A stretch of 64,000 nucleotides of DNA, from assembly GCA_000092065.1 (NCBI GenBank), contig CP000589.1. One strand, given 5' to 3'. Positions 16,072 through 35,969 of the stretch are shown here, one piece after another; within the stretch, counting starts at the first letter, position 1; each line of letters opens with the position of its first letter. Under the pieces are notes generated by a model. That model was not told the origin of the DNA. It made no database searches and saw only the letters and a list, made by a program, of their open reading frames with translations. This DNA is from Ostreococcus lucimarinus. Taxonomy: Eukaryota. The position numbers and the translations under genes were made by a program.

Positions 16072-17103
16072 ATGTCCGCGTCGCCCGCGTCGCTCGTCGC
16101 TCTCGCGCGTCGCGTCGCGCAGTGGCGCGCCGTCGACGATGACGCGCGTGGCGGCGGCGTCGTCGCGCGCGCGAATCCCAAGGCGTCGCGCCGCGCGCGC
16201 CAGCGGAGAGAACCGAACGAAAGCCACCCCAAACGCAAGTACACGATCGAGGAGCGTTTGAAGCACAAGGGCGTGGACGTCGAGCGGGCGCGGATGGGCG
16301 GCGCGCGGGACCGGGACGACGCCGGCGGCGGGGCGGCGTCGAGCGCGGCGGTTTCGACGAGTGGAGACGTCCCGAAGGGCGAAGACGTGTGCGAACGCGT
16401 GGCGGAGTTGGCGTTCAGGCAAGACGCCGAGGGGTGGCCGGCGCAAAAGACGGAGGCGTGGGCGTTCGCGCGGGCGAGCGCGTTGACGGCGAGCGACGTC
16501 GGGCGAGTGTTGAGCGGCGACGGCGCGAAAGTCTTGATGCGCAAACAGCGCACGCGAGCCGCGGAGCAGGCGTTAGAGCGCGACCGTGCGACTTCGGCTT
16601 TGGTGCGAGAGGTAACAGAGGCGCCGGTGGCGACGGGGTCGTCGAAAAAGGAAAGGAAAGGGAAGGGCGGAGGTACGTCTCCCGCGATTCGACACGGTAA
16701 CGAATTTGAATCCGAAGCCTTGGCGCACTACGAAGCCGTATTGGGGACAAAGTGCCTGGAATTCGGACTCAAAATACATGACGTGCACTACTGGCTCGGC
16801 GCTTCGCCCGATGGCGTGCATCCCAGCGGTCGCATCGTCGAGATAAAATGTCCGTACTCTCGACCAATCATCGCGCGTCGGCGCGCGATGGAGCACTATG
16901 CCCAAATTCAAACCTTGTTGGAAGTCTTCGACCTCGATTATTGCGACTTTGTGCAGTACAAGCCCGCGGGACGCGGCAAAGGCCGTTCGGGCGACCCTGA
17001 CGCTCCGGAATTCCTCTGCGAAACCATCGCTCGAGACGCCGAGTGGTGGTCGACGCACTTCGACGAGCTCCAAACTTTCGCCGCGAGCCTTCCTTCGCCC
17101 TAG
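16072..17103 (+). CDS. YqaJ-like (lambda-exonuclease/PD-(D/E)xK) recombination exonuclease domain protein
   Basis: ATG verified. QKTEAWAFARASALTASDVGRVL ... GASPDGVHPSGRIVEIKCPYSR is the canonical YqaJ motif set (TE(E)W..R.G.ITAS; G.SPDG; EIKCP). Confidence 0.7.
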   Translation: MSASPASLVALARRVAQWRAVDDDARGGGVVARANPKASRRARQRREPNESHPKRKYTIEERLKHKGVDVERARMGGARDRDDAGGGAASSAAVSTSGDVPKGEDVCERVAELAFRQDAEGWPAQKTEAWAFARASALTASDVGRVLSGDGAKVLMRKQRTRAAEQALERDRATSALVREVTEAPVATGSSKKERKGKGGGTSPAIRHGNEFESEALAHYEAVLGTKCLEFGLKIHDVHYWLGASPDGVHPSGRIVEIKCPYSRPIIARRRAMEHYAQIQTLLEVFDLDYCDFVQYKPAGRGKGRSGDPDAPEFLCETIARDAEWWSTHFDELQTFAASLPSP

Positions 17104-17302
17104 CGCGCTGTGCACGCATGTAAACATTTATTGGTTTCTCGCCGCACTCCGGACGTCGAGCGCGCTCGTCGACGCGCGCGCATTCATCCGCGCGTCGTCG
17201 CGCGCGCAAAAATTTGAAATTTCCCACAGCTCGAGCCGTCCCGTCGTGCCCATCGCGCCGTCGCCAAACCGCGCCTCGCGCCCGGGGCGTCATCCGCTCG
17301 CC

Positions 17303-20300
17303 ATGGATTGGGCGTGTCTAAACGACGCCTCGCAACCCCCCGACGACGTCGAACGCCTCGCGCGTCGCACGGCGGAGGCGGAAGAGTCGCGATTGATTTC
17401 CTCGTACGAACACGCCGTGCGGAGAGCCGCGTCCGGAAACGCGCACGAAGCGATCGAGAGCCTGCGCGCGGTGCTCGCGCACGCGCTGACGAATCGCGAG
17501 GACGTCTCCGCGCGATTGCTCCGGGTGAAGTTTCTGTCGCTGAAAAATCTCGGGCGATTGCTGGATGAACGCGGGACGGCGGCGAGCGAAGACGACGAGG
17601 CGGCGCGAACGGATCGAGAGGAGGCGGTGCGGTGCTACGCGAGCGCGGTAGAGATAGACGACACGGATGCGTTGGTGTGGGGAAGATTGGGACGCGCGGC
17701 GGTGGCGGTGGGCTCGATGGCGGTGGCGAGGATGGCTTACGAGAGAGCGGTGAGCGCGAGCCCGCGGAATCAGCTGTTTTTGGAAGACTTGAGCGAAGTG
17801 TGCCTGAGCGCGGGGGATTTTGAAACAGCCAAGGCGTTGGCCGGGGCGGTGATGGAGATTGACCCTGGAAATGCGCGCGCGCGAGCGATGAAACGCGCGC
17901 CGGAGGCGCTGGAACCGACTCGGGCGATGAAGGTGGCGAGAGAAAGAGCGGCGTCGGCGGCGTCGACGAGGGATGAGGGAGAAATCGCGATTCGGTTGAG
18001 CGCGGACATGGACAAGAATTGGGGGGTGATAACCGCATTATTAGCGCGCCTCGGTGGTGCTCCGACTCCGGAATCGATCACGAGGAGCGGCAAAGCGAAG
18101 GATGCCGCTGAGCCCGAGACGCCCGCTGAGGCGGAGAATGCCGACGCACCGGCTACACCGACGCAGTCAAAAGAGGTGGACGTGGTGCCAGGATCGGCAA
18201 CGGCAGACGACGAGGATGTTTCGGAAGATGATGTGATTTCTTCTTCATTCGCAAAGTATATGCGCCACGTGCGAGACGTCCACATCCCGAGAGATGTGAT
18301 AGGGAGAAAGGTTCGATTCGTGTTTGATTCGCCGTCTTCGATGCCGATGGAATTAGGAACGACTGATGTCGTCGATCTGACGGACAAAGACGTTTTGACA
18401 CAACCATCTGTGGACACGCCATCTACATCCCAGCCGGTGAGCGAAGTGAGTGCAAGCCAAGCCAACAAAACGCCCTCCAAGGCGGCTGCAAAGGCCAAGG
18501 CGGCTGCAAAGGCGCAGAAAGATGTCGCTACAATTCGGAAATCGCGACGTCAACTGGAATTAGACGAGAAAAAAGCGCTCGAAGACGAAAAGATGCGCAT
18601 TATCGCCGAACAGGAAGCCATTCAAAAAGCGCTAGAAAAGGAGGAGAAGAGAAAAGCTGCCGAGGCAAAGGAATGGAAACCGGAATCGAACATCTCTCGC
18701 GCTCTGTTGAATTTGATAGGCGCTGAAGACCCAGTCGTGTCAGCGGTAAAAAAAGCAACTACCGACGTCGCGGGTGCCAGAGATCGTGCGAATACCATCA
18801 AAAAGCAACATCAGAGAGAATTGAAGGAGGCAGCTGCGAAGAGGGCGAAAGAGGAGCGTGAAATGAAGACGCATAAGCGAGTTTCTTCATTCGTTAACGC
18901 CATTGACGATGTGCATGCAGGCGCCGCGCACATCGCTTGGCGATTCTTATCTACAACAGCTGCTCGCTGGCGACCGGACACTGAAGATGATTGCTCGCCA
19001 CCTCCTTGGTCGATCATTTACCTGTATCACATCTTTGGCGTTGGACAGGGAGACGAGCTCGCGCCCGTGGCGCGAATATTGTTGTGCATCGCTGACACCG
19101 CAATTCTTGCGGCGCGCGAATGTGCGCTTGGACATCCGGGGCGCACGTACTTCAGAAACATGGCAGTCGGGTTGTTAGACGAGGTATCTTTAGTGATGAA
19201 CCGTGATCCGAAACAAGACTTTCACGCAGAGAGCCTGTTCTTACGTCATAAGCTTGTGGATCTAGATGGCGAAGATCGAAGTGTGAGCATGTTCTACCTT
19301 GAACGGGCGCAAGAAGTTGCTCCGGATGATGCAGATCTCCCGCCGGCACCTGCCTCAATCGAAGATGCCGCACCCGCACGTTTCAGTAAGCAGTCATTAC
19401 GTGCCGCGATGGACGCAATGAAGGTGAAGGAAGTTGTCATTGGCGCCGCGGCGAGATTTGCCAAGGGGCAGACTACCGAAGTAGTATCAACGTTGACACC
19501 TCTACTCTTACCCGATGAAGATCAGGAAGAATCGACCGATAATTTGGACGCGCTTTGCTTGACGCAATCAGAAAAGCAAAATGCACTTAAGGTGCTCGCG
19601 GCGGCGGCGAAAAGGCAAGGTCCATCGTGTGTCGTTATTCAGATAAAAGCTCTCAAGATGGCTTACGACTTGGACGTAACGAAACATCACTCGATGCTGA
19701 GACTCATCGCTGAGGCACTGGAATCCACCGACCGCGCACACACAAAGCAAGCGCTCGAAGTCGTTGAATCTATGGGATTAGCGGCGATCGCGGCGTCGCT
19801 GTTTGAGGCGCATTACACCGAGTTCGCGATGGCACCTGGAGTGAAGAAGAAAAACAAAGCTTCGCGTTATGCTGCCGCAAGCTTGGAGGCTTCAGCACTA
19901 CTAATCTCCGCTATCCAGCGAGCTTCAAAGCCAAAAGATTTGGAACTCATTGAGTTGCATGAGAAACTTCATGATCGCCTCGCGGACTGTCGATGCTGTT
20001 GCGGCGACTATCGGAAAGGAGTGTTTCTGAAGTCGTCTCTTGTCCAGTTGGCCAAATGCAGAAATCGTATTACAAAGGCGCGAGATCAACGACACGCTAC
20101 TGAACCCACAAAAAAGCGGACAACGAAAGTCACCATCGAAAACCGTAGCAAGGACACTTCCGATAAGGTGAAAAGGAAAAAGAAGGTGGATGCGGATGAT
20201 GAGGGTGAATTCCGCCGACGTGTGCGTCGTCAGCGTAGCAGCATCAGTAGCATCGAAGACGACGATAGAACACCGCAAGACAAGGCTGATCGTAAACTTC

Positions 20301-23300
20301 TAGATCGGTTGGATAAACTCATAATCCAGCTGTGTCACTGCGTGTATGGATTTACATTGGATCAGCCCACTCGGAATTGCCGAGAAGAATATGGCGCATG
20401 TACGACCACACTTCATATTTCGAACGAAATGGAAGCCGCCAACCTTTGGTTGGCCATTCAACCTTACGCCATGGTGAACAAGGAAAGTATTCCCAGCGCC
20501 GTCATTGAGGAGATCCGCAAGAAAATATCCGATCCACCGAAGACCGAGCAAGCTACACTTATCGAGAAGTACTTGTCCACAGGCTCAGACGACCTTGCGT
20601 GCTCGTCTATCGCAAACTTTGGAGAGATAACCGAGCAAGATCGACAGCTCGCTCGAGAGCTAATCAGCACGCCGACCGCAGATGAAGTCATCGTTGCTCG
20701 ACAAGGAGGCTCGACTCCGAAGAACGGCCCCAGCGCGCCGCCGACTCCGGTTGTCACTACAGACGTCATGCATTATCTCACGAGTACTCCAACTACAGAC
20801 CGTGCGCTTCGCACCGTTCAATCCGATGAGAAAATTTCGTTGTTTGCGAGCTTTTACAAAACTTTCTTGCAATTTTGTGCAGACATGGACGTTGTTGCGC
20901 TCGAAACATTGCTCGAGGACGAACAAACAGATTATGATCAACTTCATGCGTTGCTTGGAAGTGTTGCATCGTCGACTCCCACGGCGCAGCAATCTGCTGT
21001 GGCGGCCAAGAGCGAGGAGGTGACGAAGCTGTACAAGTTTGACGTCGAGTACAATCCCACGCGCCCGCAAAGTTGGATCGCGCTGGCCGATCACCTGGAT
21101 AACATCAAAGATATCGTTCTTAACGATGCCGCCAAAATCTTGGCAGTCGGCACCTTCCGCGCGTCTCCAATGTTGACAATGCTTCAGTCGACGCAGCTGG
21201 CGATTCGACGGGCGTTGATTGCGGCGGAAGAGGCTTTAACAATGACTCATTATCCTGGACACCCGGAGACGGAGTGGGTGCGGTCACAAATTTACGAGCG
21301 CCTCGGCCAAACTGCGTACGAGCTCGTACAGGATGCTCCACCAATATACGACTCTCGCAAGTTTGCTTTGGTCAAAACTACTCCTACGTACGCATCCACG
21401 CTTGCGTTGTGCAAACAAGCGTTCACGAAAGCTTCCGAAGCTTATCCCGACAATTGGATATACCCCCACTACCTGGCGAAGATCGCGAAAAAAGATGGCC
21501 AACCTTTATCACACGTTCTCGAAACCCACGCACAGGCGCTCGCGATAAAGCCGGGCTGTTTGGAAGCAATCTATCAAGTGACGAATATTCGTTTGCACAT
21601 GCTCTTGTCCATCGAGGTTAGCGGAAGAAAGAAGATGACTCCAGAGTCACAAGCAATCACGCTTTGCGTACTCAAGCAACCGTTTAACCCAGGAGACATG
21701 CAAAATAGTTGGATCGGTGCATATCGAGATTGCATCGTAGCGTTGCTCTTCATCAACAAGAATTATCCCAAGTTCCACAAGGCGAGCTATCGTCTTGCGT
21801 GGGCTCGCTTGAAAAAGTCTCCGGGAGAACTCGGGCACTGTCAAAAAGCTTTGGAGTACCTGAACCCTCTATTCAAAAGTCCTCGGACTGGAACGTTCAA
21901 GATTTTCATGACTGAAATCGATGACACAAATTTGGGCATCAAGACTCCCGTGGAGACGGTCGACGGAAATATTGCGTATGAGTGCGGTATCAGCGAATCT
22001 CGACGACGCTTCATAGCGAACGTTCGCCGTACGCTTCGCTTGTACTTGACGTTGCTTTACACAAACGAGGACATGGGTACACTTGCGGCGGTAGTTTCTT
22101 ACATCACGGACTATTCCAAAACCGCCACGAAAACGCGTCTGCCAATCATCGCGAACTCACAAGACGTGCGCTTCTTTGCTTTCGGACTTTTGTTGCGAGC
22201 CCTTGCGGCAAGGCTCTCGGTTGTGGGTCGAAGAATTCAAGAATCATTGCAGAAAGAACAAGCGTCCATGCTCGCTGGAAAAGAAGGCGCGAATACAGAA
22301 GCGGGTACGCCACAAGCGGCGTCGGTCGCATCGACCAAACTAGATGTGTACCTCGAACAAGCGTACAATGTTTGGTTTGACTTCGCGGTTCCCGCTCGAG
22401 GAAATATGTTGTCTTGGGAGCAAAATGTCGACGAGGCTTTCACACAACTTGAAGTCGAGGAAAGCCGCACCGACGAAGGCCCTGATCTCGTCAAGGAACC
22501 TTACAAGACGGCGTTCAGTAGCGCGAGCAAGTTCACGAAGTCATCACCAGAGATGAATTTCGAACAGTACGCTCTCGAGTGCATAACCGACTTGGAAGCC
22601 AAATCTGACTTGAATACGCTCGCCGCACGGCTATCCCTCTGTCAAAAACGTTTCAGGGAAATCGAACCTGAAGCCGACGCGCAAGTGAAAGAATCAGGCA
22701 TGAATCGTTTGAAGATTCTTGGTAACGCGTTGAAGGATGCGTTCATCAGATGCTCTGCGCCGACGATTGAACTCTTGGCAAAAGGGGAAATCAAGTTATG
22801 CCCGGGTGGTTTAGAAAACGTCGAAGAAGAGACCTCGAAGAAGGACAACGATGCTGTCGTCGACGAAGCGAAAGAAGGTACCGAGGCTGTGAATTCGCCG
22901 CAAAAGTCTACGCCAACCAACTTCACCGAAATCGTCCTCGTCACTGCGCGGCGTCTTCATGTGGTAACGAAGACAGAATCTACGGCACGACTGTACGAGT
23001 TCGCTGTCCAACGACGCAATTCATTGCAAGCTCTGATCGATGCGATTGATTCTGGTAGCACACCAACGGACATGGAAGACCCGAGCGTGCCTGTCGTCGC
23101 TAAACTTCACGCGGAAGTCACCAAGCTAACGGCAAAAATTGCCGAGCTGAAAACAAAGCACAGCAATTTGGTCGAAAGCGCGCTCGTCGCCGAAGGCCAG
23201 ACGACCGATCCAGAACAACTAAAGCTCGTCAAGGAAACGTACGAGGAGCTCACCACTACGATTGTTCGATGTGAGAAACTCAAGGCGGATCACGCCTGTG

Positions 23301-23571
23301 AAGTGGTCAATTACCGCAAAGAGACGAGCCAGCTCGCGGATGAAATGGGCAAGCGCGACATTGGCAACGCTGATTCGACAGAATACATCCTGCGCGTGAT
23401 GAGCGCCGTGCTCCAACGTGAAGTGACCGATATCGATGAAGCCGAACGCGAAGCCGAAATCGCCATCGGAGAGCTGAGAAGGTTGCGTTCGGACGTCGCG
23501 AAAACGAAACGCGCGAAAGTCAGTCGCGGTCGCTCAAAAAAATCCGCGGCGACAAACGCGACGGAAGCCGT

Positions 23572-23609
<38 letters not shown>

Positions 23610-23716
23610 TCGAACCTCGCCAAGAGCTCGAGCCCCCTCGGCCCGAGCCCGAGCCCACCTCTGACGTCACCATGCTCGTCGCCGACGCCGTCGCCGACGC
23701 CGTAGCCGACGTCTGA
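17303..23716 (+). CDS. giant TPR-repeat protein, CABIN1/Hir3-like (HIRA-complex component candidate)
   Basis: 2137 aa from in-frame ATG (MDWACLND). The N-terminal TPR region (VRCYASAVEIDDTDALVWGRLGRAAVAVGSMAVARMAYERAVSASPRNQLFLEDLSEVCLSAGDFETAKAL) matches the Hir3/CABIN1 signature. It also has long coiled-coil/K-E rich segments and a C-terminal DADADADA microsatellite-encoded tail. Confidence 0.5.
23573..23610. repeat. (GCCGAC)n hexanucleotide microsatellite encoding a poly(Asp-Ala) tail
   Basis: gccgacgccgacgccgacgccgacgccgacg. A second degenerate copy is at ~23671-23706. Confidence 0.9.
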
Positions 23717-29254: not shown

Positions 29255-29668
29255 TTACGCGTCGCCGTCGAGTCCTCGCGCGCGCTCGCTCGGCTCGCAA
29301 CACCAATCGCACCTCATCGCCTTCACCGCCCGCTCGAGCGTCGGCAAATCGCTCGTCGCGCTCGCCTCGCTCTGTATCGCCGCGTTCAGCGTCGTCGTTC
29401 GCAGCACCTCCGCCGCGTCTCGCACGTTCGCCGCCGTCGCGTCGACGCACGCGCGCGCGAACCCATCGACGAAGTGCGTCCCGCGCTTCGCGATGAAACT
29501 CGCGACTTCGCCCCCCCCCGCGCCGTCGCCGCCGCCGACGAGCGCGTGCATCGCGCCCTGCGTCACCGTGTCGCTCACCGCGGACGCCGCGGTGGAGAGC
29601 GTGGACGAGAGCGCGTCCATGGCGCGTCGCGATGTCGCGCGCGGGGCGCGACTCGACGCGCGCGGCAT
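29255..29668 (-). CDS. small hypothetical protein
   Basis: 137-aa minus ORF (MDALSSTLSTAASAVSDT...CDWCCEPSERARG). No recognisable domain. May be a real small gene or GC-driven. A further same-frame 75-aa ORF at 29000..29227 follows, after a TAA. Confidence 0.25.
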   Translation of the reverse strand: MPRASSRAPRATSRRAMDALSSTLSTAASAVSDTVTQGAMHALVGGGDGAGGGEVASFIAKRGTHFVDGFARACVDATAANVRDAAEVLRTTTLNAAIQSEASATSDLPTLERAVKAMRCDWCCEPSERARGLDGDA

Positions 29669-29901
29669 TTCGCCGCCGTCGGCGCGTCATGCGCGCCGTC
29701 GTCTCGGCGCGCGCGCGAAGCGCGCGAAGCGCGCGCATCGAGGCGTCGACGAGCGGCGCGACGGCGCGAGGACTCGCGGCGCGCGCGCGCGGCGCGAGGA
29801 TTCGCGATCGGTGTGGAACGGTTTCGACGACCGTCGAACGACGCGCCGTCGCGCGCGCGCGCGGCGGACGCGAAAGCGACGGGACGGACTCGTTCGACGC
29901 G

Positions 29902-30429
29902 ATGTTTCGCGATCTCGAGCGAGAGACGCGGTGGATGTTCGAGCGCGCGGCGCGCGAGTCGAGGGCGCTCGAGGGACGCCGGCGCGAGGCGCTCGAGCGG
30001 CGGCGAGCGGCGCCGCGCGACGCGGGAATCGGGGACGATTGGCGACGAGAGGAGCGCGGAGAAAAGCTTCTACCCGGAGGTGGGGTGCACAGGTATTACG
30101 TCAGCGAGCGGGTGACGACGTACGGAGGCGCGCCCGCGCGAGGCGCTCGCGTCGGCTCGGCGGTCGGCTCGAGCTCGGGGTTCCTCGCGACGTGCCTCGC
30201 GCTCGGCGTCGCGGCGACGTACGCGAGCCTGGGGAGAAAGTTTTTCAAAGGCTTCGACAGGACGTCGTACAAAGAGGACGCGAAACTCGGTCTCACAGCG
30301 CGCTGGCCGCTGTTGTACGCGTCTTCAAGCAGGTTTCGGGACGAGTTCGCCGCGGCGACGGCGGACCCACCGCGCGACGACGACGATCGCGGCGCGAAAA
30401 AAGACGTCGACGTCGACGTCGACGAGTAG
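29902..30429 (+). CDS. hypothetical protein with C-terminal hydrophobic segment
   Basis: ORF 29632..30429 trimmed to ATG (MFRDLERETRWMF). Contains GFLATCLALGVAATYASLG, a TM-like segment. The DNA ends in a (GACGTC)n repeat. No family assignment. Confidence 0.3.
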   Translation: MFRDLERETRWMFERAARESRALEGRRREALERRRAAPRDAGIGDDWRREERGEKLLPGGGVHRYYVSERVTTYGGAPARGARVGSAVGSSSGFLATCLALGVAATYASLGRKFFKGFDRTSYKEDAKLGLTARWPLLYASSSRFRDEFAAATADPPRDDDDRGAKKDVDVDVDE

Positions 30430-30472
30430 CTCACGTAGCGTTCAGACGTGTCCATTTCAACACTTTGTGCGA

Positions 30473-30520
30473 TTCAAAAAACCATCCGGGCGTCGGTTCA
30501 AAAAACCATCCGCGCGTCGG
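30473..30520. promoter_or_regulatory. 24-bp direct tandem repeat (x2), ~115-160 bp upstream of the HAD-fibrillin start codon
   Basis: ttcaaaaaaccatccgGgcgtcgg / ttcaaaaaaccatccgCgcgtcgg, one mismatch. An A-rich core in an otherwise GC-rich region. The position is promoter/5'UTR-like. Confidence 0.5.
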
Positions 30521-30634
30521 TCGCCGCACAGTCAGCGTCGTCCGCGGAATATCTTTCTAGAAAGTCGACCCCGACCCCGGCAAACCTCCGCGCGCGCGCG
30601 CGCCGCCGGACGCGCGCGCGCGCGCACGAGCGCC

Positions 30635-33154
30635 ATGGACGCGACGTCGGCCACCGCGCGCGTCGCGACGCGCGCGCGCGGCATCGGCGTGCGAAACGCT
30701 GCGCGACCGGGTGTCCCCGCGCGCGCGCACCGCGCGACGCGTCGCGCGCGACGCGACGCGACGGCGAGAGCGTCGGAGCGCGCGGACGACGAACGCACCG
30801 CGGGACCCGACAGTCTGCGCACGCGGGCGCGAACGGCGGTGGACGCGGCGAACGCGGCGCTCGGGACGGGCTCCGCGGCGCGTTCGCGCGAGAGCGCGGC
30901 GGGACGACGGCGCTCGAGCGAGCCCGCGCGCGTCGAGGCGAACGATGGGGTGGAGTACGACGTTAAATTAATCGTCACTGATGTCGATGGAACGCTGTTG
31001 GACTCGAAGCAGCGGTTGAGCGAGAGGACGGCGGCGGCGCTGCGGGAAGCGGCGGAGTTGGGCGTGCGCACCGTCGTCGCCACGGGGAAGACCAGAGGGC
31101 CGTGGGCGCGCAAGCTGTACGACGAGCTCGGGCGGGATAACAAGAAGATGCCTGGGTTATTCATACAAGGTCTCATCACGTGCGACGGACTCGGGAAGAC
31201 GATCAAGAGTCGGACGCTGGATAAGGCGTACGTGAAGGATATTTTGCGCTTTGCGCAAGCGCGAGACTGCACGATTGTGGCGTTTTGCGACACTAAGATC
31301 GTGTGTTCGACGCGAAATGAGCTCACGGACAAAGTCTTAGACTACGGCGAGCCAGAACCGGTGGAGTGCGGAGATTTATTGGCCAAGAGCGATGAGTACG
31401 ACGTCAACAAGTTGTTACTCTTTTGCGACGACGCCGACGTGCAACGATACCGCCTCGAGGTGCGCGGAAGCTCGCTCTCCGACGCATGCGATGTTACCGT
31501 GGCCGTGTCCGGTATGTTAGAATTCTTACCGAAAGGTGCGAGCAAAGGCGCCGCTGTTCGCGAGCTGTGTGAGTCGTTGGAAATCGATTTAGCCAACGTC
31601 CTGGCGCTGGGCGACGGTGAAAACGACAAGGAAATGCTAACCTACGCGGGTGTCGGCGTCGCCGTCGGAAATGCGAGCGACGCCACGAAAGCGGTGGCGG
31701 ATATTGTTTTGGACGAAACGAACGATGATGACGCCGTGGCTGTGGCTATAGAAAGGTACGTGCTTCCGGTATTGAGACGCGAAGCCAAAGCCAAGGCGGA
31801 GGCAGAGGCGGAAGCAAAGCGCAAGCTGAAAGAAGAAGCTAAAGCCAAGGCCACAGCAAAGGTTCAGGCAGCGAAAGAAAAAGCGGAGTATCAAGTGCTT
31901 TTAAGACAAAAGACCGAAGACGAGCGCAGAGAGGCGGAAGCTGAGCTCGAGGCTGAGCTCGAGTTGAAGGTCGAAACTGAGGAAAAATTGCTCGGATTGG
32001 TCAGAGCAGTGGCGCAAGGCACACAACGCGTCAGCGAAGCGCTCACGCCGCAAGAAATTGAAGCGAACGAAGCTAGAGACGCGGCGTCGACGACGTCTTC
32101 GTCGGTGGAAAGTGAGACCACAACCGACGAGAGGCAGGCGCAGCTCGACGCGATCGAAGCGTTGGCCGCAAAGCAATCGCAAGAGTTGCTTGAACGCCAA
32201 CGCGCGAATCAAGAGCGTTTGAAAAGACTGCAGCTCGAGTACCAAGCCGCCAAGGCGGAGCTCGCAAAGGTTGAAAAGAAAAGCACGGCAAAAATGGCTG
32301 CAAAAGTTGTCAAAGTTGACGACCGCGCGACGTCCACCGACGCCGAGGAAGACGAGAAGGAACGCATTCGTTCTGAGACAAACATCATCAAGGCTCGTAC
32401 ATCTCTCAAGAAAGCCGCTCAAAAGGCGAAGAGTGACGCCCGAAAGTCTGAAAAAGAAGCGCGCGTACAGGAAAAGCGCCAAGTGGAGGAGACTGGCGTA
32501 ACAACTAAGGACGCGGTGAACGGTGCAAATCTCTTCGCCGGCTTCGTCGCCTCGGCGCTTAAAACCGTCGCCACGCTGGGCGGAGCGGAAGTTTTGCGTC
32601 GTCGTCAAGAGGCTGATCGCGATGCGTCGAAAGCGCGCTTACTTTTGGAATTGGTGGATGTCGACGGCGGCCGCGAATGTAGTCCAGACACGCTCGAGCG
32701 CATCAACGAGGCAATCGCCACGCTCGAGGCGTTGAATCCCACAAAAAAAGGAGCGAAGAGCACTCTGATGCTCGGCCTTTGGAGCTGCGCGTTCACGAAT
32801 TGTCCGCAGATTCTGGGAACGGAAGGCATCAACATGATGAAACAGAAGGGCGCGACCACATTCTTTAGCTACGATCTCGACACCGAGCGGTGCGAAATCG
32901 ACCGAGGGTGGCCTCTGAGACGTCTGCGAGCGAGCGTATCGTACAGAACTGATTCTTCGTTCGAGCTCGATATTCCCCTGGCTCCCATATCTAAAGTGTT
33001 CGGGATTTCGTTATCCAACGAAGAGCGCAACTACTCCGCCCTGACGGTGACGTATCTCGATCCGGACATGCAAATTTGCCGAGGTCGCGACGATACCGTG
33101 TACGTCTTCGTGCAAAACGACCCGACGCACAGGCTCGATCTCATCGGCGATTAA
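30635..33154 (+). CDS. HAD-superfamily Cof-type hydrolase fused to coiled-coil region and C-terminal PAP/fibrillin (plastid lipid-associated protein) domain
   Basis: N-terminal transit-like peptide. LIVTDVDGTLLDS (HAD motif I), GKTRGP, GDGENDKEM (motif IV). A ~250-aa E/A/K coiled coil follows. The C-terminal IATLEALNPTKKGAKSTLMLGLWSCAFTN...YLDPDMQICRG matches the fibrillin domain (ALEALNPTP...LxGKWxLxYTS). Confidence 0.65.
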   Translation: MDATSATARVATRARGIGVRNAARPGVPARAHRATRRARRDATARASERADDERTAGPDSLRTRARTAVDAANAALGTGSAARSRESAAGRRRSSEPARVEANDGVEYDVKLIVTDVDGTLLDSKQRLSERTAAALREAAELGVRTVVATGKTRGPWARKLYDELGRDNKKMPGLFIQGLITCDGLGKTIKSRTLDKAYVKDILRFAQARDCTIVAFCDTKIVCSTRNELTDKVLDYGEPEPVECGDLLAKSDEYDVNKLLLFCDDADVQRYRLEVRGSSLSDACDVTVAVSGMLEFLPKGASKGAAVRELCESLEIDLANVLALGDGENDKEMLTYAGVGVAVGNASDATKAVADIVLDETNDDDAVAVAIERYVLPVLRREAKAKAEAEAEAKRKLKEEAKAKATAKVQAAKEKAEYQVLLRQKTEDERREAEAELEAELELKVETEEKLLGLVRAVAQGTQRVSEALTPQEIEANEARDAASTTSSSVESETTTDERQAQLDAIEALAAKQSQELLERQRANQERLKRLQLEYQAAKAELAKVEKKSTAKMAAKVVKVDDRATSTDAEEDEKERIRSETNIIKARTSLKKAAQKAKSDARKSEKEARVQEKRQVEETGVTTKDAVNGANLFAGFVASALKTVATLGGAEVLRRRQEADRDASKARLLLELVDVDGGRECSPDTLERINEAIATLEALNPTKKGAKSTLMLGLWSCAFTNCPQILGTEGINMMKQKGATTFFSYDLDTERCEIDRGWPLRRLRASVSYRTDSSFELDIPLAPISKVFGISLSNEERNYSALTVTYLDPDMQICRGRDDTVYVFVQNDPTHRLDLIGD

Positions 33155-33330
33155 CGCGACGCGCGAAGCGTTCGTTCCTCGCCTCGCCTTAGCTCTCGCG
33201 TTGTGATAGAGGTGCCCGCAATCGTCCCTCAACTCCCCCCCGGTGCCCGGATTTTCAGAGAATCGCGATCGCGCGCAGAACTCGGAGACGAGCGCGCGCC
33301 GGCGCGGCGCCACCGCGCGTCGCGCGCGCG

Positions 33331-35892
33331 ATGTCGAACCCGCTCGAAGAACGCTTCCGCAGGTCATGGTTCGAACACCTCAGTCGCCTTCGAGAAGTCG
33401 AAGCCGCGTGCGCGCCGGAGATCGAAGGCGATCCGGCCCTCCGGTACAGCGTGCCCCGGATCGTCTGCATCGGTGAAGAGTCCTCTGGGAAATCCTCCAC
33501 GCTCGAGCGCGTGGCGATGATGAGCGTGTTTCCGAGCGACGAGAGACTGTGCACGCGGGTGCCGATCGAGCTGCGGCTGAGGCATCGCGATCGGGAGAGT
33601 TTGGCAAAGGAGGAAGAGCGGTTTAGGGACGGGTACGTCGTCATGAAAATGGCGCCGGGCGAGGATTCCAAGTTAAACGCGGACGTTTCCTCACAGATGC
33701 ATCCCGATGAAGTTCCGGCGCAAGTTCGCACGTGGATGGAAGAGCTAGTCGCGGCGGCGAACGGCAAAGTGACGGGCGTGACGGATGACCGGATAATCAT
33801 CGAGCTGTACTCTCCGCTGTGCGTCAACCTGGATTTGATCGATTTACCTGGGATCGTGGCTGGGAGCATACCAGGGGAGCCTACGGACATGATGGACCGC
33901 ACGAGAAATCTATCGGCATCGTTCTTGAATGATAAGGCGCATCCACATACGTTTGTCATCGCCGTCGCATCGGCGCGCGAGGCGAGAATTCGTAACTCGC
34001 AAGCGATGGAATTGGTGCAGCGTTACAATAAAGTGCAATTCACTATTGGTGCTTTGACGATGGCGGATCTTTCAGCAGACAGTCGCCGTGAATCACCATA
34101 TACGAGACTGATCGAACGTTTGAATGCACAAGCGGACGATACGCCGGAGCTCGGTCTTGGGTACGTGGCTCTCAAGAATCGCGACACCGTTACGGCGACA
34201 CGAGAAAACCAATCGAGAGAAGAACTCGAGAAGGCCAACCAAGATGAAAAAGAATGGTTTGCTGAGCATCTTTCCGGACATACTGAACGCTGTGGCATTG
34301 AAAGTCTCGTCGATAGACTCGTGCAAAAAGTTGACGAGTACACCAGGGGGCCATGGATCGTAGCCGAGCGCGAGCGCATCGAGACTGAGCTCGTGAAAGT
34401 GCGACAAGAATTAAGCGACATGGGCGAGTTCCTGCCGAACGATTTGAATGAACTTATTTCTTACTTTTCCAGTGAGATAGAGAAGCAGTGTAAACCTTCG
34501 TTTGAAACACTTCTTGAGTTTGTTCCAACGGTGACATCCGGCAGCGCCGGACTGCAAGATATCTACGACGCCGCAAACTTTACGATTTGGCAACACAGCG
34601 ATATCCACTCGCTAATGCCGTCAATTTCTCCAACCACTTTAAAGACATTCGACGGTCGAATGTTCTACGGCGAACCCACCTTTACAAAAAGATGGTCGCC
34701 GTTTGTGAAAATCACGCACAAACATCTTTTTGGGCAAGACACGCAGACACCTGAGACACCGTCCCATGCCTCATCAAATGGCGTTTGGACAATGCGGCGT
34801 GACGCTATAAACACAATTTCAGATCACTTCAATCAGACTTTTTGTAACGGTAGCCTGCTATTCGTTGGCCGACGTTGCTCATACGACGACGATGGTTGCG
34901 GTGGTGACAAGTTGGTTGGATTCTTTATCACACAGGACATGATACAACAAAGAAGACACGATATTCAGACCATGTTGGCGGCGTTGGGCAAGCGTGTGCC
35001 AACAGACAACCGTTCTCCTTGGACGAAGAGAGAGAACCATGAGAGCGATTCTCAGGATTCGAATTCTCAGTCACCAAATAATGTTGGAACAGGCACTGGT
35101 TTTGATTTTGCTCCGAACCTTTTTACTCAGCGTGCAGAGCGCGGACCGTTTCGTCGCGCGCGACGTTCAACGCGCGGCGGTCTCGAACAAGATGGGGAAG
35201 TAGTTGTTCTTTACCACCCTGCACGACCAGCTTTCAGAGCGAAGTTAGAGATATCTGAGGACCTGGAGAAATATTATGAGAACGTCTTGCATCTGCGCGA
35301 GTCTGTCGTTCGGATTTTCCAGACGAATGCTCGCGCCTTCTTTAAATCATCAATCACGGACGTATTGGACGTTCTGAAAGCAAAGGATGCGCGATTTTCT
35401 GTGTTTTTCGAATCGCTCTCTGTGATTCTTGATGATTGGTGCGAGGTGTGTGTTCGGAACGTAACCACTGAATTTGCTGAGTGGCTTACGAGGACAGGAG
35501 CCGTATCAGAGAATCGTGATGCGCATTTTCAAATCACCGCTTCGTATTTTACTAACTCGATAACACGCAAAATGCGCGAAATGATATTCTTTCATTACGC
35601 TGATTCAAGCATTGCCAAAGTTTTCGAATCAGGCGAGCTCAATGAAATCATGCGGCGGCACTGCGACGAGCATAACATCGATGTAGACGATCTTTACGTT
35701 GAAAACTGTGTTGAACAGCGTAAGAAAGCGGTGATGAAAATGGAAATGCTGACAACCATGAAGAACAGCCTACATCAAATATTTACGAGTGAAGTGGACG
35801 AACAAAGTAACGAACAACTTCCAAACACGCCAGAAGCAGATGCGGCACCTGTCCCGACTCTCTCGCACTCTCTCAGTCGAACTTCGATCTGA
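33331..35892 (+). CDS. dynamin-superfamily large GTPase (Mx/DRP-like)
   Basis: PRIVCIGEESSGKSSTLERV (G1), ...TRVPIEL (G2 region), DLIDLPGI (G3), and LTMADLS (a TKxD-like G4 region). Long alpha-helical C-terminus. ATG verified. Confidence 0.75.
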   Translation: MSNPLEERFRRSWFEHLSRLREVEAACAPEIEGDPALRYSVPRIVCIGEESSGKSSTLERVAMMSVFPSDERLCTRVPIELRLRHRDRESLAKEEERFRDGYVVMKMAPGEDSKLNADVSSQMHPDEVPAQVRTWMEELVAAANGKVTGVTDDRIIIELYSPLCVNLDLIDLPGIVAGSIPGEPTDMMDRTRNLSASFLNDKAHPHTFVIAVASAREARIRNSQAMELVQRYNKVQFTIGALTMADLSADSRRESPYTRLIERLNAQADDTPELGLGYVALKNRDTVTATRENQSREELEKANQDEKEWFAEHLSGHTERCGIESLVDRLVQKVDEYTRGPWIVAERERIETELVKVRQELSDMGEFLPNDLNELISYFSSEIEKQCKPSFETLLEFVPTVTSGSAGLQDIYDAANFTIWQHSDIHSLMPSISPTTLKTFDGRMFYGEPTFTKRWSPFVKITHKHLFGQDTQTPETPSHASSNGVWTMRRDAINTISDHFNQTFCNGSLLFVGRRCSYDDDGCGGDKLVGFFITQDMIQQRRHDIQTMLAALGKRVPTDNRSPWTKRENHESDSQDSNSQSPNNVGTGTGFDFAPNLFTQRAERGPFRRARRSTRGGLEQDGEVVVLYHPARPAFRAKLEISEDLEKYYENVLHLRESVVRIFQTNARAFFKSSITDVLDVLKAKDARFSVFFESLSVILDDWCEVCVRNVTTEFAEWLTRTGAVSENRDAHFQITASYFTNSITRKMREMIFFHYADSSIAKVFESGELNEIMRRHCDEHNIDVDDLYVENCVEQRKKAVMKMEMLTTMKNSLHQIFTSEVDEQSNEQLPNTPEADAAPVPTLSHSLSRTSI

Positions 35893-35969
35893 TACTTTTG
35901 TGGAACCCGTGGAGTAAAGAGTCGTAACAACAATGAATCAAATATACAACATGTTTTCTATGTTTTCTT

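Follow-up and report, generated by a model that had tools for sequence, protein, structure and literature searches.

The 64,000-nucleotide stretch of Ostreococcus lucimarinus contig CP000589.1 analysed here (the window) contains a gene whose 839-residue product joins a Cof-type HAD phosphatase domain, a helical linker rich in Glu, Ala and Lys and a fibrillin domain in one uninterrupted open reading frame (ORF), with both domains scoring above their family cut-offs. This is the tripartite arrangement that an initial annotation, made from the DNA letters, had proposed, and the four peptide strings that it quoted are all present in the translation (DVDGTLLDS at residues 116–124, GDGENDKEM at 326–334, ATLEALNPTKKG at 695–706 and LMLGLWSCAFTN at 711–722). 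The fusion combines two known families in a new domain architecture that is so far uncharacterised, and it is not a new kind of system. Nor is it unique to the source genome, since it is already in public annotation, where it has gone unremarked or been misnamed. The protein is probably a plastid-targeted, catalytically competent Cof-type HAD-IIB phosphomonoesterase tethered to a plastid lipid surface by its fibrillin end, a reading that is held here at about an even chance.

The reading frame is intact, with neither a stop nor a frameshift in its 839 codons. It stays open farther upstream to a GTG at 30467 (ORF 30467–33154, +), the first ATG being that at 30635, and gene calls made independently on four other contigs, each of which carries the identical protein as one gene, chose the same start. 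A search for the same fusion elsewhere brought up 61 clusters, defined at 90% identity, that have the HAD plus fibrillin architecture, falling into three divergent groups with 32–95% identity to the query; the labels Ostreococcus-, Micromonas- and Bathycoccus-like for these groups rest on composition and on one named Ostreococcus tauri member. The only named close homologues are two O. tauri proteins, whose cluster representative is 52% identical. Both domains are present in O. tauri OUS48960.1 (875 aa) and CEF99027.1 (706 aa) and in UniRef100_A0A6U0ADY5 (859 aa). When 1.84 billion representatives were searched exhaustively with HMMER, only approximately six 50%-level representatives displayed the full fused architecture, and the rest of the top 150 matches were HAD-only or carried other partners. 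Full-text literature searches returned no paper on a phosphatase–fibrillin fusion, in agreement with the initial annotation, which knew of no characterised example.

Two further observations concern the spread and naming of the family. The proteins P0210 and P0356 (925–926 aa) are more divergent fused members, in which the helix motif LERCDPSEE replaces LExxNPT and the Pfam fibrillin score is 17.5 bits, below the cut-off; they may mark the edge of the taxonomic range of the fused family. CEF99027.1 is misnamed 'Cation-transporting P-type ATPase' despite its HAD and fibrillin domains.

A trivial explanation would be that a HAD gene and a neighbouring fibrillin gene were joined through an error of sequencing or assembly, or that the two parts are transcribed and translated separately. 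The metagenome gene calls do come from ORF finders, which are blind to internal promoters. However, the frame is unbroken both in the window and in the 61 clusters, which represent independent assemblies and three divergent groups, and 48 blocks of the collection, Tara marine metagenome assemblies among them, list this exact protein. The O. tauri reference models and the UniRef entry likewise span both domains. In addition, when the fibrillin region alone and its 13-sequence profile were used as queries, the matches recovered were all truncated members of this fused family, with no named stand-alone fibrillin among them. The linker itself carries invariant residues and is under purifying selection. 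Ratios of nonsynonymous to synonymous substitution (dN/dS), estimated by the Nei–Gojobori method against a 93%-identical sister lineage (L005) and resting on small counts, were lowest for the HAD domain (0.11), the part under the strongest constraint, followed by the fibrillin domain (0.20) and the linker (0.28), and reached 0.92, on few sites, in the N-terminal extension. Selection on the linker shows that it is translated in this frame and, together with the presence of the fusion in many assemblies, makes an artefact very unlikely.

The HAD domain is complete. Pfam Hydrolase_3 (PF08282) matched residues 113–372 over its full profile (positions 1–255; E 4.7e-49), and the NCBIfam model TIGR00099, which covers the Cof subfamily of HAD-IIB, gave 154.9 bits against a cut-off of 137 over profile positions 1–256. 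The initial annotation had assigned the HAD hydrolase to the N-terminal ~300 residues; a complete Cof-type domain is indeed present, but its actual span is residues 110–377, behind an extension of ~105 residues. The closest relative of solved structure is PfHAD1 (4qjb), with a full-length alignment (E 6.8e-25) that is gap-poor across the cap. In the AlphaFold2 (AF2) model the HAD domain has a predicted local distance difference test score (pLDDT) of ~90, and the cap forms an alpha/beta insert at approximately residues 181–299, between motifs II and III, with the same pLDDT of ~90. The catalytic residues D116, D118, T120, T150, K304, D327 and D331 are all present and are invariant in 34 aligned homologues, which argues that an active enzyme is likelier than a pseudo-enzyme.

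The C-terminal ~200 residues are a fibrillin domain, and on this point the initial annotation has stood. PF04755 gave 42.1 bits with the whole protein and 46.8 bits with the isolated region (cut-off 22), and it was matched by 13 of 13 diverse homologues (best E 5.5e-19). A profile built from these 13 homologues aligned full-length to the Fibrillin 5 homolog chains 9kaf and 9jwr (residues 9–202, E 3.5e-5). The AF2 model of the region comprises two N-terminal helices and eight beta-strands, with a pLDDT of 80, and a Foldseek search of the PDB placed three rice FBN5 chains at the top (9jwr, E 1.8e-9; template modelling scores of 0.58–0.65), followed by cellular retinol-binding proteins (CRBP), fatty acid-binding proteins (FABP) and lipocalins; as no other fibrillin has a solved structure, the rank of FBN5 says nothing on orthology. 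The fibrillin hallmarks are retained, namely the helix-LExxNPT element, the GxW of lipocalin motif 1 and the C-terminal YLDxD...RG. Across 24–34 homologues, L711, G714, W716, F720, T721, D809 and R816 are invariant, and Y807 and L808 are nearly so. Lipocalin motif 1 and a C-terminal Asp-containing motif have been named as features of fibrillins (PMC5507956).

Between the two domains lies a region that the initial annotation had described as a coiled coil of ~250 residues rich in Glu, Ala and Lys. The region is indeed long, helical and charged, with only 3 Pro or Gly in 244 residues and 43% charged residues; a heptad pattern, and a weak one, was seen in one conserved island of ~35 residues. The AF2 model places helices at residues 377–423, 428–460, 496–556 and 567–620, giving ~195 helical residues, which are separated by disordered breaks rich in Ser and Thr or in acidic residues; the disordered breaks of the linker lie at residues 462–494, 553–569 and 622–649. 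In homologues the linker ranges from 214 to 400 residues, and it is the least conserved part of the protein in both length and sequence. It nevertheless holds two conserved islands, the clearer of which is ELLERQRANQERLKRLQLEY..AKAEL, and R528, L529, L532 and L543 of the heptad island are invariant across all three groups. In a simple test of a/d positions, enrichment was seen only in helix 496–556, which holds the island (0.41 vs 0.11, shuffle p 0.07), and helices 377–423, 428–460 and 567–620 are hydrophobic-poor, with 45–52% charged residues and no significant register (p 0.31–0.91). A fairer label than coiled coil, which these data support only in part, is a long charged helical arm carrying one coiled-coil-like island.

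The arm leads into a conserved amphipathic helix just ahead of the fibrillin domain. Its consensus, GFxASALKTVxxL, is found in all groups; A641 is invariant in an alignment of 24 sequences and nearly so in one of 34, and L648 is nearly invariant. Read off the sequence, its hydrophobic residues fall at positions i, i+1, i+4, i+5, i+8, i+9, i+12 and i+15. The helix lies outside the region that aligns with FBN5, that is, outside the canonical fibrillin domain, and is specific to the fused family, unlike the situation in typical fibrillins.

At the other end of the protein, residues 1–105 are rich in Ala, Arg and Thr, contain a single acidic residue within the first 40 positions and are disordered in the AF2 model. 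The extension is a median of 121 residues long among 58 family members that begin with Met and have at least 40 residues ahead of the HAD, and in 54 of these 58 its first 40 residues carry a net positive charge. The near-free evolution of the N-terminus resembles that of targeting peptides, and a transit peptide is plausible from its composition. The coordinates of all of these features are collected in Table 1.

Table 1. Features of the HAD–fibrillin gene and its product, with positions in the window.
Feature	Position	Strand	Basis
Whole HAD phosphatase–helical linker–fibrillin gene	30635..33154	+	Single exon, 839 codons and stop
N-terminal extension, aa 1–105, candidate organelle (plastid) targeting peptide and disordered stretch	30635..30949	+	Composition, pLDDT <50
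Cof-type HAD-IIB phosphatase domain with cap insert, aa 110–377	30962..31765	+	Pfam, NCBIfam, PfHAD1 alignment
HAD motif I, DVDGT, nucleophile D116, general acid/base D118	30980..30994	+	Invariant in 34 aligned homologues
HAD motif II, threonine T150 in ATGK	31082..31084	+	A149, T150, G151 and K152 invariant
HAD motif III, lysine K304 in SKG	31544..31546	+	K304 and G305 invariant, S303 nearly
HAD motif IV, GDGEND, Mg2+-binding D327 and D331	31610..31627	+	G326, D327, N330 and D331 invariant
Charged helical linker, aa 378–630	31766..32524	+	AF2 secondary structure, composition
Conserved heptad island, aa 515–548, QELLERQRANQERLKRLQLEYQAAKAELAKVEKK, candidate coiled-coil or partner-binding segment	32177..32278	+	Invariant residues
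Conserved amphipathic helix, aa 631–648, ANLFAGFVASALKTVATL, just ahead of fibrillin domain	32525..32578	+	Consensus
Fibrillin (PAP_fibrillin) lipocalin-like domain, aa 651–836	32585..33142	+	PF04755, FBN5 alignment, AF2/Foldseek

Outside the fused family, the HAD domain is closest to N-terminally extended proteins of the green lineage (Picochlorum, Nannochloris and Mesotaenium) and to chloroplast YbeY–HAD fusions, and the best non-fused matches have the motifs TGKxxGPW, FxQGL and YGEPxPE in common with it. A scan with a YbeY hidden Markov model detected an N-terminal YbeY domain in 11 of 152 match sequences; EF-hands, Nudix and a CHRD-like tail are other partners of the HAD domain among these relatives. 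A Pfam scan of the HAD–fibrillin protein itself gave no match to the YbeY domain PF02130, even at E <= 1. In a neighbour-joining (NJ) tree the fused proteins form one clade with moderate support (27 of 40 bootstraps), inside a group that is rich in N-terminally extended sequences and also includes the YbeY–HAD fusions. The split of the fused, green-algal and YbeY HADs from those of Chloroflexota is robust, with 38 of 40 replicates. The same tree drew the fused clade as exact sister to seven green-algal stand-alone HADs, a placement that was set aside with bootstrap support of 2 of 40.

The stand-alone HADs of Picochlorum and Nannochloris (WPT15093.1 and P0065) are misnamed 'Endoribonuclease YBEY', the YbeY domain being absent from them. 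The C-terminal tail of the Nannochloris protein was considered as a cryptic fibrillin and rejected, with an hhalign probability of 0.1 and a weak Pfam match to CHRD instead. Among the matches listed, the nearest bacterial HADs (GTDB genome contigs, L006–L085) come almost entirely from metagenome-assembled genomes of Anaerolineae/Chloroflexota, at 35–44% identity, in a scan that used one peptide pattern and may be biased. A cyanobacterial ancestry of the HAD domain had been expected; with Anaerolineae/Chloroflexota as the nearest bacteria among the matches listed, no conclusion on its origin was drawn.

Comparison with known systems brings out what is particular to the fused protein. Its C-terminal 190 residues share with fibrillins of the PF04755 family, as represented by rice FBN5 (9jwr, 9kaf), a full-length alignment, the hallmark motifs and an eight-stranded barrel, although identity to FBN5 is only 16–18%. 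Typical fibrillins are single-domain proteins of 200–400 residues, whereas here the fibrillin is the C-terminal fifth of an 839-residue enzyme fusion. On the HAD side, the match to PfHAD1 (4qjb/4zev) extends over the full domain and takes in the cap insert as well as all four catalytic motifs. Whereas PfHAD1 and its bacterial Cof-type counterparts are soluble and stand alone at ~270–300 residues, the present protein also has an N-terminal presequence and a C-terminal extension of 460 residues. The nearest eukaryotic relatives, at 37–39% identity over the domain and with the motifs TGKxxGPW, FxQGL and YGEPxPE in common, are the HAD of land-plant chloroplast YbeY (AtYbeY, At2g25870 type) and the green-algal stand-alone HADs. 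In the YbeY–HAD proteins YbeY stands on the N-terminal side of the HAD, whereas in the HAD–fibrillin protein the fibrillin stands on its C-terminal side. Fibrillins with additional modules have precedents, since Arabidopsis FBN11 has a kinase-like domain. In Ostreococcus, a fibrillin with two FHA domains has been described as a chimera (PMC2716323). Both of these proteins, like the present one, link the fibrillin via low-complexity regions to a signalling or enzymatic module, which in neither of them is a phosphatase. Literature searches did not find a functional characterisation of the FBN11 or FHA–fibrillin chimeras.

The model of docking and tethering is drawn from the known behaviour of fibrillins and Cof-type HADs, and what it says on location, lipid docking, activity and substrate is a prediction of that kind. 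Fibrillins bind plastid lipids or are embedded in them, AtFBN3a for example binding phosphatidic acid, sulfoquinovosyldiacylglycerol (SQDG) and saturated fatty acids (PMC12674411). The fibrillin end would dock on a hydrophobic plastid surface, either the monolayer of a plastoglobule or the thylakoid membrane. The charged helical arm of ~250 residues, up to ~29 nm long when fully extended, would permanently tie the phosphatase to the fibrillin barrel and the amphipathic helix, and the conserved heptad island may mediate chain pairing or the binding of a partner. The HAD domain would then dephosphorylate a small phosphorylated metabolite near the surface, such that a normally soluble activity would be confined to plastid lipid bodies.

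Several points weigh against this model. Cof-type enzymes usually act on soluble metabolites, and the gain from placing one at a lipid surface is not evident. Some fibrillins, FBN5 among them, are stromal and act via enzyme binding and not on lipid bodies. The composition of the presequence would suit a mitochondrial presequence about equally well. The substrate is not readable from the sequence: all equivalog-level NCBIfam models fell far below their cut-offs, including those for sugar-phosphatase (103 bits vs 273), hydroxymethylpyrimidine pyrophosphate (HMP-PP) phosphatase, pyridoxal phosphatase and others, and no specific substrate can therefore be transferred to the HAD domain. Dimerisation is a guess because the heptad signal is weak, and the conserved islands of the arm suggest that it may exceed a passive tether. 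Finally, the full-length AF2 model has no confident inter-domain geometry, with a predicted template modelling (pTM) score of 0.42.

A different, and fairly unlikely, account takes the protein to be a lipid-phosphate phosphatase with a built-in carrier, in which the barrel would bind the hydrophobic tail of the substrate and offer its head group to the HAD of the same or of a partner chain. Candidate substrates would be prenyl phosphate, phytyl phosphate, phosphatidic or lysophosphatidic acid and phosphatidylglycerol phosphate (PG-phosphate), by analogy with the handling of the solanesyl chain by FBN5. The lipocalin-like barrel with its conserved GxW is consistent with such a role, as is the affinity of AtFBN3a for phosphatidic acid (PMC12674411), and the disordered breaks in the linker would allow the arm to fold back. 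Moreover, FBN5 partners solanesyl diphosphate synthases, and O. tauri and Micromonas pusilla have been reported to be without an FBN5 orthologue (PMC5507956), while PfHAD1, the closest solved HAD, controls flux into the methylerythritol phosphate (MEP) pathway of isoprenoid synthesis: it is a promiscuous, cytoplasmic sugar-phosphate phosphatase of the IIB, Cof-like type, and its loss raises the intermediates of that pathway (PMC6234871). Yet the characterised Cof-type enzymes prefer small soluble phosphoesters (PMC6234871), the nearest relatives of the HAD function without a fibrillin domain, a spacer of 214–400 residues is odd for a direct hand-over, and FBN5 as top match is uninformative on orthology. 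Taken to its boldest form, the fusion could be a 'Rosetta stone', indicating that the green-lineage plastid HAD, which accompanies YbeY in land plants, acts on a lipophilic (prenyl or lipid) phosphate while the fibrillin barrel holds the tail; this would be a new kind of plastid phosphatase, the first case of a fibrillin with an enzyme built in as its partner and a possible stand-in for the FBN5 reported to be missing in O. tauri and M. pusilla, and it is unlikely.

The ancestry of the HAD domain raises another possibility, namely that it serves the chloroplast ribosome or RNA as the domain beside land-plant YbeY may do, for example by removing phosphate in RNA or nucleotide processing, with the fibrillin as a thylakoid anchor. 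AtYbeY carries a HAD domain that is conserved in its plant homologues and has no assigned role (bioRxiv 10.64898/2026.08.26.747336), and the HAD described here falls in a clade with the YbeY–HAD fusions, on the well-supported side of the split from Chloroflexota. This account is nonetheless improbable, given that the Pfam scan detected neither a YbeY nor an RNA-binding domain in the HAD–fibrillin protein, that its closest green-algal relatives are stand-alone and YbeY is one of several partners (EF-hand, Nudix, CHRD), and that identity to the YbeY–HAD proteins is only 37%, not above the 35–44% of the bacterial homologues among the matches listed. It is also hard to credit that the protein has a chiefly structural role, as a scaffold that, like other long coiled-coil plastid proteins, would organise lipid bodies or membranes, the HAD being a binding module or contributing a minor activity. 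Structural coat proteins are what fibrillins classically are (PMC5507956), and the many helical residues with conserved islands would fit such a role; against it stand the invariance of all the HAD catalytic residues and the strong constraint on that domain, the poor conservation of the linker, lowest in the protein for both length and sequence, and the weakness of the heptad signal.

The surroundings of the gene can be described briefly. Neighbouring ORFs encode a DHHC palmitoyltransferase, a DEAD-box helicase, a dynamin-family GTPase and Det1, and the intergenic gaps are short, so the window represents a compact, apparently intron-poor nuclear genome. The ORF immediately upstream (29632–30429, +; 265 aa) has no Pfam match, and it is called as a gene of 246–248 residues in all five related contigs, which makes it a conserved neighbour. 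Minus-strand ORFs that overlap the HAD–fibrillin gene were regarded as shadow ORFs of the kind usual in GC-rich coding DNA. Downstream, the dynamin-family GTPase gene (33331–35892, +; Dynamin_N and Dynamin_M) has a GC content of 0.51 vs 0.59 and 0.66 in the flanking genes. The dynamin region (33139–35923) is missing in sister lineage L005, where ~40 bp stand in place of 2.8 kb, a difference that marks an insertion or deletion specific to one lineage. On the left, the break falls 16 nt ahead of the HAD–fibrillin stop, and consequently the last few residues of the fused protein differ between the two lineages. Over the window, GC content per 2 kb ranges from 0.47 to 0.72; among the patches of low GC are the dynamin-like gene and positions 18000–22000, the latter lying inside an ORF of 2272 residues (16898–23716) that matches TPR families only.

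Overall, the conserved HAD–fibrillin fusion provides a concrete, testable link of phosphatase activity to plastid lipid bodies, and it occurs in abundant marine picoalgae. Lineage-specific domain fusions are unsurprising in themselves; most fibrillins, however, have no assigned biochemical function, and the fusion offers a useful way into two families of plastid proteins that are poorly understood. Errors of annotation hide the HAD–fibrillin family in public records. O. tauri, which bears a homologue of the same architecture, is genetically tractable. If the tethered arrangement is correct, it would represent a way to confine a soluble metabolite phosphatase at a lipid surface; if the barrel instead hands lipid tails to the HAD domain, the protein would be a new lipid or prenyl-phosphate phosphatase.

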